The notes beneath the pieces were generated by a model. It had not been told where the DNA came from. It ran no database searches and saw nothing but the letters and a program-made list of their open reading frames with translations. Of a stretch of DNA of 64,000 bases, positions 50,136 through 52,700 are shown piece after piece. Every line of letters begins with the position of its first letter. The stretch's first letter is position 1. The translations under genes were made by a program, and so were the position numbers. Source of the DNA: Oligoflexia bacterium (GTDB taxonomy: Bacteria > Bdellovibrionota > UBA1018); the NCBI GenBank assembly GCA_963758495.1, contig CAVWVI010000001.1, positions 96,001 to 160,000 of the forward strand, given 5' to 3'.

Positions 50136-52700
50136 TTAATAAACCAATAAATACCGAGTTGCAATTCCTGTTTCATCGGACATCACATAGCATAACCCAT
50201 GATCTTTACAATCCTTGCTTTTGACCAGTTCACAAACTAACATAGTACTGAAGCCCTGATTATACTGACTCTTTGACCAAAGAGGGTGAGCTTGGCAAGG
50301 ACTGTAGTGTGACGAAGTCCCGAAGTCTTTAGCAAAGTACACCCCAGCACCGTGAGCTTGTCCTGACAACATCAAAGCCGTACCACTCATATTTTTAAGA
50401 GAACTCCTCACAATCGCGTGCCAGTTCTCACCCCTTGATCCATGAAATACGTAAACACTCTCATTCTTTGATTTTAGATCTTGAAATAGCTTCTCCCTTT
50501 CTGGCGGATTCGAGACAAACTCAAAAATTTGTTTAATGGAAGGGAGCTTCGAGTCTTTAATCTCCTGGGTCACTTGACTCATATCTATAGGCTTTAGGTA
50601 TGAACGGTTTGTGAAAAGAATCCACCTGAGTAAATAATACGCCTTAGGATCAATCGCATCTAAAACTTCCTTCAGGGGTGCCTTCGTATCCCGCAGCTCC
50701 TGAGTAGAAGGCAATTTGTCTAGAATAGTCAAAATGGCTTGATAATCCCGTTTTTTATCTTTCAATTCCTTTCCTTCTCCAATAAGAAACTCAGGCGGAA
50801 AAGGATTAAAAATCTGATCTCTGCGAGAAGAGGATGCGACTACATAAGTCATGGATATCAGTAAATCCGTGGCTTCATTTGAGTTCAGTAATTCGAACTG
50901 AGGATCACTCCCTAGCCCTAACTCAGAAAACTTCCACTGGCACAGACTGTCCTGACAAGGAATCAGCTTAACGCTGGGAGCCTCATGTAATTTCCCACAA
51001 AGAGGACAATAGCTAGTGCTGTTTTTAATTCTCTCTTTTATAAATTCAGCAACATCAACCATGAAGTTCTGAGTCTTAAATTTTTTCTCTTTCCAATAAT
51101 CTTTGATGAACTGTTTTAGAAAAAAGCTGAGTCCATGAGTCAAACCCTGAGCTTCTTTAATTTTAATCTCGGGAATTGTATGTTCATTGCTATATCCACC
51201 AGGAAATGTGAATTTAACTTCAATCGTATCACTTCTAGTGAGTGACATCCCCTGAAGAATGTGCTCTGGAACTTCTTCTAACGGAAAAAAGAGCGTAGAG
51301 ATATGCTCTGCAAGTTCATCATCATGAAAAATTGAATTCAGTTTTTCTAAATCATTTTTGAATCTATCTTTTACAGGATGACTTCTAAGTACCACCTCGG
51401 GTTCTGGTTCAGCTCGACTGGATGCTTCGAATTGACCGGAATCATCCTCTTCAACGTTTTCAACATTGCCCCAATCAGTGTCACTTTCGTTCCATTTTTC
51501 ATCCTCTGATAATTCCGCCAATGAACTTGTCGATAATTCTTCGGGTAATTTGTCTTGTACTTCTCCTGGCACTTCTTCTGGTAATTTTTCAGGTATTGCC
51601 TTGGGTGGTTTTCCAGTTATTTTTCCAGATAATTTTAAAAGAGATGACTTAGCCTGATGAAATTTTGAGGGTGATTCAGATGCGATTTGAACAGAAGAAG
51701 AAATCACTTCAACAGGTGGAGGAAATACTCCTTTTGAGGCAAGCTCTTCTTTGACTCGACTCAAGTAAGTGGGGTCTGGCCAGCCATGGGCGGCTGCGCC
51801 CCCGGATTGCTGACTTTTCATATGAATTCCGTTATAAGTGATCACGCCCTCTGCTTGACGAGTTAAGCTTCGGCCAATGGTAAAGAGGAGCTTGCGATCC
51901 CATGCTGTACGGAAAAGATCCAAGACTTCTCGGCCTTCGACTGTATCAGGCAGGTAGGCCTGTCGACTATCTCCATAATAAAACATTCCCGGTTGCGGGT
52001 GATGTGGACCTTGGTGACCACTCGGGAAAGAAAAAGAAATATTCCAGCTTCCATTTCCAGCATAGCCAGGCAAGCTTACCCTGGACTGGGTCACTGTCAT
52101 GGTTCCATTCGGGGCGTCCCCTATCTGAATCCCATAAATTTTATTGCAAACAGGGCACTTGGGTTTTAAATCAAGAGCTTTTTTTACGCAATTCTTATGA
52201 AAGTAGTGACCTTTTTCACACTGTTTTAACTTATAAATAGGATCATGCGCTGAAAACTCGTCATAACAAATGCTACAAGTCTCTTCTTGGTTTTGATCCT
52301 GAGGACTGACACGCAGAAAAGTGTCTTCACTCATTTTTGGGTTAATTTTTTGGCTAATCTTTGCTGCGTGAGTTGAAGTTGAACCAGAAGAGGAGCTCGA
52401 ATTCGGATCGACTCTCCTCATGGGGTTCAAGATTTTAGAAATTAAATCTAACTGTGAATTTGTACTAAAATCAATCTCATACTGCCCCATGTGCTGAGAA
52501 AAAAAGCCTGCAATGGGAGTAATCTTATCTTTTCCAGCATTAAAAGCGTCTTCCAGTTCTTGAGCAGCAATTTGATCGTATTTTTTCCAACTTTTACTAC
52601 CTTTATCGTACCATTCCCAGTCTGCCGCAAAAGCAGGTATACTTAAGAAGTAAACAGATAGTAAAATATAAAAAAAATTTAAAATTATTCGTTTTTTCAT
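50136..52700 (-). CDS. Exported WWE - RING-H2 - Deltex C-terminal - PARP6/8-like ADP-ribosyltransferase fusion
   Basis: Signal peptide from Met at 52700; WEWYD...WKKYD...ELEDAF...YEIDF; CSIC...C..GHYFH..C...CPVC; SLPGY, HPQPG, RQAYLPD..EG, LFTIGRS, IHMKS, HGWPDPTYL; YCPLC...H...C...LC; FHGS..ENWHAI...L, GAGVYFA, TRYLLVY. Confidence 0.88.
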   Translation of the reverse strand: MKKRIILNFFYILLSVYFLSIPAFAADWEWYDKGSKSWKKYDQIAAQELEDAFNAGKDKITPIAGFFSQHMGQYEIDFSTNSQLDLISKILNPMRRVDPNSSSSSGSTSTHAAKISQKINPKMSEDTFLRVSPQDQNQEETCSICYDEFSAHDPIYKLKQCEKGHYFHKNCVKKALDLKPKCPVCNKIYGIQIGDAPNGTMTVTQSRVSLPGYAGNGSWNISFSFPSGHQGPHHPQPGMFYYGDSRQAYLPDTVEGREVLDLFRTAWDRKLLFTIGRSLTRQAEGVITYNGIHMKSQQSGGAAAHGWPDPTYLSRVKEELASKGVFPPPVEVISSSVQIASESPSKFHQAKSSLLKLSGKITGKPPKAIPEKLPEEVPGEVQDKLPEELSTSSLAELSEDEKWNESDTDWGNVENVEEDDSGQFEASSRAEPEPEVVLRSHPVKDRFKNDLEKLNSIFHDDELAEHISTLFFPLEEVPEHILQGMSLTRSDTIEVKFTFPGGYSNEHTIPEIKIKEAQGLTHGLSFFLKQFIKDYWKEKKFKTQNFMVDVAEFIKERIKNSTSYCPLCGKLHEAPSVKLIPCQDSLCQWKFSELGLGSDPQFELLNSNEATDLLISMTYVVASSSRRDQIFNPFPPEFLIGEGKELKDKKRDYQAILTILDKLPSTQELRDTKAPLKEVLDAIDPKAYYLLRWILFTNRSYLKPIDMSQVTQEIKDSKLPSIKQIFEFVSNPPEREKLFQDLKSKNESVYVFHGSRGENWHAIVRSSLKNMSGTALMLSGQAHGAGVYFAKDFGTSSHYSPCQAHPLWSKSQYNQGFSTMLVCELVKSKDCKDHGLCYVMSDETGIATRYLLVY

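Follow-up and report, generated by a model that had tools for sequence, protein, structure and literature searches.

How does a gene assembled from eukaryotic ubiquitin and ADP-ribose signalling domains come to sit in a bacterial chromosome, and what would its product do? The question is raised by an open reading frame on the minus strand of a 64,000-nucleotide (nt) stretch, here called the window, from an Oligoflexia bacterium of the phylum Bdellovibrionota (assembly GCA_963758495.1, contig CAVWVI010000001.1, positions 96,001 to 160,000). A first-pass annotation, made from the letters of the window only, had read this frame as a secreted Deltex ubiquitin ligase (E3) fused to an ADP-ribosyltransferase (ART) of the PARP6/8 type, with a WWE domain, a RING-H2 finger, a complete Deltex C-terminal domain (DTC) and a PARP6/8-like module. 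In this study, Pfam, comparison with solved structures and two confident AlphaFold models all bore out that domain reading, and the models match solved DTX2/DTX3L and PARP16 structures. As judged from sequence, the Deltex-PARP gene is a real, intact bacterial gene built from eukaryote-type parts plus a bacterial Sec signal peptide.

Domains of the Deltex-PARP protein

The frame exists as claimed, single and uninterrupted, and encodes 864 amino acids (aa) from a GTG codon or 854 aa from an ATG codon that falls 19 nt past the upstream gene's stop. Residues are numbered here on the 854-aa form, and Pfam residue ranges are those of the 864-aa form, on which six Pfam families were found, each over its curated cut-off. 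From the N terminus, the order is signal peptide, WWE, RING-H2, DTC, disordered acidic linker, RWD, C4 zinc finger, helical extension (HE) and ART:

50136..52730, minus: whole open frame, 864 aa from GTG at 52730 or 854 aa from ATG at 52700, stop codon at 50136-50138
52626..52700, minus: Sec-type signal peptide, MKKRIILNFFYILLSVYFLSIPAFA before AD, residues 1-25 of the 854-aa form, read from the sequence by eye
52443..52619, minus: WWE domain, single copy (Pfam PF02825, 38-96, 33.8 bits against a cut-off of 21.1)
52143..52280, minus: RING-H2 finger (Pfam zf-RING_2, 151-196, 36.8 bits against 27.3)
51726..52121, minus: DTC (Pfam PF18102, 204-335, 162.1 bits against 25, E 1e-47)
51360..51710, minus: acidic and proline-rich linker, residues 331-447, with a KLPEE...KLPEE repeat, read from the sequence
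51030..51356, minus: RWD domain, E2-like without the catalytic Cys (Pfam PF05773, 459-567, 23.5 bits against 22.8)
50940..51008, minus: C4 zinc finger, C565-x2-C568-x13-C582-x4-C587, its four Cys kept in all 29 relatives
50616..50876, minus: helical extension before the ART, ARTD15_N (Pfam PF18084, 619-705, 42.1 bits against 26.3)
50139..50543, minus: ART, the PARP catalytic domain (Pfam PF00644, 730-833, 47.6 bits against 26.7)

The approximate WWE, RING and DTC ranges of the first-pass annotation agree with those of Pfam, the motifs it had quoted (VKFTFPGGY, DLLISM...RRDQIFNPFP, FHGS and GVYFA) all occur in the protein, and the DTC and PARP matches on which it depended, at 162.1 and 47.6 bits, are both significant. 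The 854-aa protein starts at the ATG with MKKR..., and its N terminus reads MKKRIILNFFYILLSVYFLSIPAFA followed by ADWEW. By eye, this region comprises an n-region with KKR, a 17-residue hydrophobic core and a cleavage site between AFA and AD, and no lipobox Cys was seen in it; in the AlphaFold model the WWE strand begins 2 residues past the predicted cleavage site.

The Deltex half was modelled from 24 sequences (residues 26-335) with a mean predicted local distance difference test score (pLDDT) of 88.5, only model residues 77-92 falling below 50. Its WWE domain matched RNF146 WWE chains by sequence (E 2e-4), and the WWE model (pLDDT 84-97) matched the WWE domains of TRIP12, DTX1 and HUWE1 in Foldseek with template modelling (TM) scores of 0.79-0.80 to single-domain chains; the N-terminal WWE module of the DTX1/2/4 type is thus present as one copy instead of a tandem pair. 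All eight ligands of the RING-H2 finger are kept (C142, C145, C161, H165, H168, C171, C182 and C185); in an alignment of 10 rows (A2), seven of these columns show no variation or almost none, and H168 was read from the sequence. Both Pfam and the model place the RING finger directly before the DTC, as in Deltex E3 ligases, and the half as a whole matched the DTX2 RING-DTC bound to ADP-ribose (6y3j, Foldseek E 6.5e-19, TM 0.73 to the chain). The DTC gave the strongest matches to solved chains by sequence (DTX3L 3pg6, E 2e-37; DTX2 6y22, E 1.1e-36; DTX1, E 4.6e-31), and its model superposes on DTX3L 3pg6 with a TM score of 0.95-0.97, a root-mean-square deviation (rmsd) of 1.0-1.1 Å and 50% identity. 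The spacing of His, His+12 and Glu+14 that the first-pass annotation had given for human DTX proteins was recovered against DTX2 chain 6y22, where IHMK...AAAHGWPDPTYLSRVKEEL aligns with IHHK...ITGHGYPDPNYLQNVLAEL, so that His293, His305 and Glu319 align with DTX2 His582, His594 and Glu608. His305 is taken to be the functional equivalent of DTX2 His594. His293 and Glu319 are invariant in all 10 rows of alignment A2. According to Zhu et al. (2022, PMC7615817), DTX2 His582 and Glu608 are strictly conserved and needed for the ubiquitylation of NAD+, which is impaired by their mutation, and it has been proposed there that they activate the 3'-hydroxyl of ADP-ribose.

The linker that follows matches no Pfam family in the scan of the protein. 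Beyond it, the PARP half (residues 448-854, modelled from 29 sequences) forms one rigid unit with a pLDDT of 89.4 and a predicted TM score of 0.86. The RWD domain (model residues 1-131) matched the RNF25 RWD in VIA-align (2day, Z 8.3, 103 residues aligned, rmsd 3.1), and also the GCN2 RWD (Z 7.2) and E2 enzymes (Z about 7), which are middling values. The spacing of the zinc finger, CX2CX13CX4C, satisfies the motif CX2CX9-19CX4C that Perina et al. (2014, PMC4245714) give for PARP6/8 homologues. The last 260 residues of the model match human PARP16 (Foldseek 6hxs, E 7.5e-16, TM 0.83; VIA-align Z 24.8, 231 residues aligned, rmsd 2.5 Å), the helical extension falling within this match, and a family profile matched PARP16 4f0d at E 6.9e-34. 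The ART triad reads His753-Tyr788-Cys837, and all 29 relatives keep His753, Gly754, Tyr788 and Tyr799. The absence of Glu from the third triad position, seen in the first pass, extends to the whole set: the position is Cys837 here and C, Y, V, F, I, H or G in the relatives, with Glu in none of the 29. Human PARP6, PARP8 and PARP16 have the triads H-Y-I and H-Y-Y, and Cys837 aligns with the PARP16 residue that we take to be Tyr254. With its H-Y-(not Glu) triad, the protein is predicted to follow the pattern of the mono-ADP-ribosyl transferases of PARP clade 6. When the RING-DTC half and the RWD-ART half were submitted as a predicted complex, the score was 0.07 (mark 0.32), which speaks neither for nor against binding between them.

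Other Deltex-PARP fusions and the origin of the two halves

The first-pass annotation knew this architecture neither from bacteria nor from single eukaryotic proteins. For the complete set the claim held, in that no other full signal peptide-WWE-RING-DTC-RWD-ART protein was found, bacteria being scanned by one DTC pattern only; for the parts it did not, in that the DTC occurs in Endozoicomonadaceae and other fusions of a DTC with a PARP6/8-like ART exist. The bacterial scan covered one genome per species, the genome of the window excluded, with a single DTC peptide pattern that divergent DTCs may escape. It returned six loci, spread over five genomes of the Endozoicomonadaceae (Endozoicomonas atrinae, E. 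cretensis, E. elysicola, an Endozoicomonadaceae metagenome-assembled genome (MAG) and Kistimonas scapharcae):

L007 2467-6579, L008 3394-6513, L010 591-4382, and loci L009, L011 and L012: Endozoicomonadaceae DTC loci, the frame of L012 containing stops

Four of these frames were scanned; two are large proteins with one to three macro domains plus the DTC, and none of the four has a RING family match (E <= 0.001) or a PARP match. These Macro-DTC proteins share with the Deltex-PARP protein a eukaryote-type DTC in a bacterium, but no RING or PARP was detected in the frames scanned, and they stand apart in the DTC tree. No literature was found that pairs "Endozoicomonas" with "Deltex", and nothing relevant on bacterial Deltex proteins or Bdellovibrionota RING effectors, subscription-only papers lying outside the coverage of both searches. 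As far as sequence comparison goes, the protein would be the first complete Deltex ligase found in a bacterial genome in this analysis, and the only Deltex ligase found to combine an export signal with a PARP6/8-type transferase.

Among other proteins, at least five 50%-identity clusters join a DTC to a PARP6/8-like ART, and the Deltex RING-DTC and the PARP6/8-like ART are fused in at least three arrangements besides that of the query. The ART comes before RING-DTC in P0058 and P0073, and likewise, with long inserts, in P0072/P0193; RING-DTC comes before the ART, as in the query, in P0146; and both families are listed for P0357 (precomputed Pfam domains). These proteins resemble the query in carrying RING-DTC and C4-HE-ART on one chain, but neither signal peptide nor WWE was seen in them, and their domain orders differ. 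Both domains together were found in none of the 47 matches of one relative search and in none of the named PARP6-like animal proteins. In a careful ART tree of 31 rows, from which eight near-duplicates were left out and into which the split-match rows P0056, P0072 and P0193 were not entered, the query, P0058 with P0073, and P0146 fall into different clades, which suggests several independent Deltex-PARP6/8 fusions. Because the two modules have been fused repeatedly, they may well work together.

As regards origin, the whole protein used as a query found no match in 60 related genomes or in 400 other sampled genomes of the phylum beyond weak RING-only matches. The relatives of the N-terminal half include a 90% cluster with a deltex-like protein of Acanthamoeba castellanii (51% identical) and animal DTX3L-like proteins (44-50% identical). 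In a quick DTC tree of 36 rows, picked by us from 192 DTC proteins, the query joins P0057 and P0063 with a Shimodaira-Hasegawa-like approximate likelihood ratio (SH-aLRT) support of 92, no branch that holds the query reaching the starred level; these two proteins have the unusual YNGIHMK and HGWPD/HGYPD motifs of the query. The named relatives of the C-terminal half are protists, namely Balamuthia, Anaeramoeba, Pharyngomonas and Peranema. The ART tree puts the query in a clade of four with P0052, P0054 and P0002 (99/97), nested in a clade of eleven (99/98) that includes a protein from a giant-virus MAG. The closest sequences of both halves are singletons, and the donor lineage appears protist-like and possibly amoebozoan. 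P0002 (793 aa) and P0054 (625 aa), the nearest RWD-ART relatives, have signal-peptide-like starts and unrelated N-terminal regions, and the RWD-ART module may therefore be a cassette reused among exported proteins. The giant-virus protein beside the clade of the query is a 497-aa PARP6/8-like gene product (contig L017, 4767-6260).

Proposed function, alternatives and genomic setting

The genome around the Deltex-PARP gene holds a set of RING proteins. There are 15 zf-RING_2 matches in it, none of 14 control genomes has any, and within the family one or more occur in 8 of 61 genomes, its own among them. Judged by eye, signal-peptide-like starts are seen in 13 of the 15 RING frames and uncertain hydrophobic starts in the other two. 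The 14 further frames include:

C1:160632-164468 (three genes), C1:224057-225415 and C1:428436-429365: further RING frames on C1, the contig of the window
C2:121211-121822, C3:157165-158322, C3:718514-719254, C3:787921-788796 and C3:857070-859302: further RING frames on C2 and C3
C4:41198-42997, C4:226948-228534 and C4:813120-814436: further RING frames on C4

Three of these genes sit 0.6-4.5 kb past the end of the window. Pfam, run on 13 of the 14, returned RING in all 13 (one under the cut-off), ankyrin repeats in three and IBR domains in two (RBR-like); in the fourteenth, RING is accompanied by a weak Lcl_C match, which one of the ankyrin-RING proteins also shows. With 15 RING frames and mostly signal-peptide-like starts, the Deltex-PARP gene would be part of an exported ubiquitin-ligase repertoire, and the genome appears to export, or at least to route through Sec, a set of eukaryote-type ubiquitin-ligase proteins. 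Of the secretion markers, the type II secretin GspD is present (493 bits against a cut-off of 351).

We propose, with moderate confidence, that the protein is an exported effector acting in a eukaryotic, probably protist, cell, where it would couple ADP-ribosylation with the ubiquitylation of ADP-ribose. Exported through Sec and then released, perhaps by type II secretion, it would enter the cytosol of the eukaryotic cell, where the RWD-C4-HE-ART module would transfer single ADP-ribose units from host NAD+ onto a target or onto the protein itself. WWE and DTC would bind that ADP-ribose and RING-H2 would recruit host E2~ubiquitin; His293 and Glu319 of the DTC would then activate the 3'-hydroxyl of ADP-ribose, to which ubiquitin would become ester-linked, so that one chain would putatively write a composite ADP-ribose-ubiquitin mark. 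The chemistry has precedents: the reaction of ubiquitin with ADP-ribose by DTX2 was shown in vitro in 2022 (PMC7615817), and a ubiquitin ester on protein-bound ADP-ribose was described in cells in 2025, on PARP10 and PARP7 (PMC12000418). A single chain that writes and then ubiquitylates fits both the conserved residues of the two halves and the repeated fusion of the two modules elsewhere.

Several points weigh against this proposal. The first concerns delivery: a Sec signal leads only to the periplasm, whose oxidising environment two Cys-rich zinc modules would have to pass, and an injection route to the host cytosol is not evident, since VirB4 (type IV secretion) and TssC (type VI secretion) were not found, nor a YscC-type type III secretin over the cut-off, in this 92% complete genome. 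Cultured members of the phylum prey on bacteria, which are not known to have a RING/E2 ubiquitin system. Within the phylum sample the gene stands alone (0 of 400 other genomes have a relative beyond weak RING-only matches), the RWD call is marginal both in Pfam (23.5 against 22.8 bits) and in VIA-align (Z about 8), and the third triad residue is Cys, against the Ile or Tyr of human PARP6, PARP8 and PARP16. Scans for promoters (10 found, 15.6 expected) and terminators (4 found, 5.6 expected) were at or below chance.

The alternative that survives best is that the two halves are independent and fused for co-delivery, the Deltex half ubiquitylating the products of host PARPs and the ART half modifying unrelated targets. 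The linker of about 115 residues between them varies in length between assemblies, stand-alone relatives exist for each half, and P0002 and P0054, the nearest ART relatives, bear RWD-ART behind other N-terminal regions, all of which would suit such an arrangement; however, RING-DTC and PARP6/8-like ART recur as fusions in varied orders, a pattern difficult to account for unless the two are functionally linked, and we consider independence rather unlikely. It is also conceivable, if unlikely, that the protein is not host-directed at all and has a function in the bacterial envelope or against prey (an ART toxin whose ligase half is idle, for instance), or that the gene is a neutral passenger. 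A phylum known for predation on bacteria, Sec and type II secretion as the only systems found among the secretion markers sought, and the singleton status of the gene are consistent with this. On the other hand, the ligase residues are all intact and the codon usage is fully adapted, the 15 RING-type frames mostly carry export signals and include three ankyrin-RING and two RING-IBR proteins, and we know of no substrate machinery for RING, IBR or DTC outside eukaryotes.

A third alternative takes the ART half not as a transferase but as a targeting, regulatory or NAD+/ADP-ribose-binding module, which would make the protein an ADP-ribose-directed E3. The Cys at the third triad position, variable in the relatives (C, Y, V, F, I, H or G), could be read in this way, and DTX3L pairs with the nearly inactive PARP9; but His753, Gly754, Tyr788 and Tyr799 are kept in all 29 relatives and the fold matches the active PARP16, so we regard this as distinctly improbable. 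Finally, the gene might be suspected to come from a chimeric assembly, or from contaminating eukaryotic DNA that was binned with a bacterial genome, because the close relatives of both halves are all eukaryotic or unnamed and the placement of the gene comes from assembled contigs, but this is very unlikely given a 578-kb bacterial contig in which bacterial genes lie 19 nt to the upstream side and 160 nt to the downstream side, an intron-free gene with genome-typical codons and a bacterial-type signal peptide, and a second assembly with the same protein.

The bacterial setting itself is ordinary. The window corresponds to C1:96001-160000 of a 3.66-Mb genome in 5 contigs, and its genes include ftsH, der, era, rnc, mnmA, iscS, pdxJ, glmM, dacA, tilS, recX, livJ and proS; its FtsH is 84-89% identical to proteins of Bdellovibrionia, Bdellovibrionota or Oligoflexia. 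The codon usage distance of the Deltex-PARP gene is 0.087, nearer to the pooled usage of the genome than that of 97.6% of 1510 long reference open reading frames, a statistic that gene length helps, and its GC content at third codon positions is 0.356, against a reference median of 0.361. The second public assembly encodes a protein (P0213) identical in 842 of 842 aligned residues, with a 12-aa in-frame deletion between the KLPEE repeats of the linker. The genome has exactly one DTC match and one PARP match.

On either side of the Deltex-PARP gene lies a co-directional neighbour, and all three genes start like signal peptides:

48932..49975, minus: downstream co-directional RCC1-repeat protein with a signal-peptide-like start (Pfam RCC1_2, 89.8 bits, 5 stretches)
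52720..54339, minus: upstream co-directional gene with a signal-peptide-like start and a coiled-coil tail, its stop 19 nt before the ATG

All Pfam matches of the upstream neighbour are below threshold; IcmW (16.6 bits) and DUF4394 were set aside as under the cut-off. It carries roughly six copies of a tandem repeat of some 52 aa (156-nt period) with the motif FHPNGEFAY.GRDLYSVDSETGQLT. An inverted partial copy of the RCC1-repeat gene is found at 54622-54945, its arms 73-88% complementary to 48932-49975, so that the Deltex-PARP gene and its upstream neighbour sit between the RCC1-repeat gene and this copy. The copy is bracketed by 300-nt direct repeats (54380-54679 and 54986-55285, 97% identical), each of which encodes an identical 88-aa frame without a family match. 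Other eukaryote-like repeat proteins are encoded at 21049-22632 and 30245-32011 of the window and at C3:566935-567777, the set including a 465-aa RCC1, a 527-aa ankyrin and a 588-aa HEAT-repeat protein, and an 1855-aa frame full of RCC1 repeats lies at C4:444850-449196.

The interval from tilS (39058) to livJ (55329) measures 16 kb in the window and 2.2 kb in relative G008, the sole relative with both flanks kept, where pdxJ-glmM-ybbR-dacA-ftsH-tilS are followed after 2.2 kb by livJ and two permease genes. A clean insertion of 16 kb was considered and rejected: recX lies within the interval here and on another contig in G008, and the interval is therefore a rearranged variable region. Its first part is an integrated element of 5.4 kb at a tRNA-Met gene (39216-39292), bounded by a perfect 47-nt direct repeat (39248-39294, at the tRNA 3' end, and 44672-44718); an integrase fragment (40023-40508) lies within it, as does the gene for a 680-aa protein without a family. 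This element was rejected as the vehicle of the Deltex-PARP gene, as it ends at 44718 and the gene lies outside it.

Implications and comparison with known systems

Taken together with its genome, the protein may represent a natural single-chain writer of an ADP-ribose-ubiquitin mark, in a Bdellovibrionota lineage that turned from bacterial prey to eukaryotes and exports RING, RBR-like and Deltex ligases via Sec, and the recurrent fusions may reflect a long-standing and general pairing of clade-6 PARPs with Deltex ligases; we offer this wider picture as a tentative one. If it is true, human PARP6 and PARP8, which are poorly understood, would be predicted to feed Deltex-dependent ubiquitylation of ADP-ribose. 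The recurrent fusions point to clade-6 PARPs as Deltex partners, and we know of no role for the RWD and zinc-finger domains of these PARPs. In addition, a compact natural protein with both modules would be a direct test bed for the coupled writing of the mark. The RING repertoire is unexpected for a phylum known for predation on bacteria and suggests an unrecognised association with eukaryotes, and the export signals on the RING genes suggest a Sec-dependent route for effectors of the ubiquitin system.

Among known proteins, the Deltex half shares the order WWE, RING-H2, DTC with DTX1, DTX2 and DTX4 (WWE-WWE-RING-DTC) and with DTX3L, and its RING-DTC is about 34% identical to that of DTX2 in the structural match. 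These proteins differ from the bacterial one in having two WWE domains (DTX1/2/4), no bacterial signal peptide and no PARP module on the same chain, and animal Deltex ligases carry IHHK where it carries IHMK. The C-terminal half has the module order of human PARP6 and PARP8, for which Suskiewicz et al. (2023, PMC10450202) derive the succession RWD, C4 zinc finger, helical extension and ART; the RWD of the human proteins is split by a long insertion, whereas that of the bacterial protein is contiguous. PARP16 (HE-ART) has the fold of helical extension and ART in common with it, and the triads of clade 6 are likewise without Glu, while the Cys at the third triad position sets the bacterial protein apart from these human proteins.

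In logic, the proposed activity resembles that of the Legionella SidE effectors such as SdeA, which, according to PMC12000418, combine a mono-ART with ubiquitin attachment on one chain. However, ubiquitin itself is ADP-ribosylated by the SidE enzymes, which work through a phosphodiesterase domain and need neither E1 nor E2, whereas the RING finger here should need host E1 and E2, and no SidE-type phosphodiesterase was found on the protein by Pfam, which returned only WWE, RING, DTC, RWD, ARTD15_N and PARP; as judged from this comparison, the resemblance is one of logic only, with no relationship of sequence or fold. A further known system is the DTX3L-PARP9 heterodimer, in which a Deltex RING-DTC ligase forms a physical complex with a member of the PARP family, so that ubiquitylation is linked to ADP-ribosylation (as described in PMC7500938 and bioRxiv 10.64898/2026.04.23.720386). 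While DTX3L and PARP9 are separate chains and PARP9 belongs to the macro-PARP clade, the bacterial protein, without macro, KH or RRM domains, joins its ligase covalently to a PARP of clade 6.

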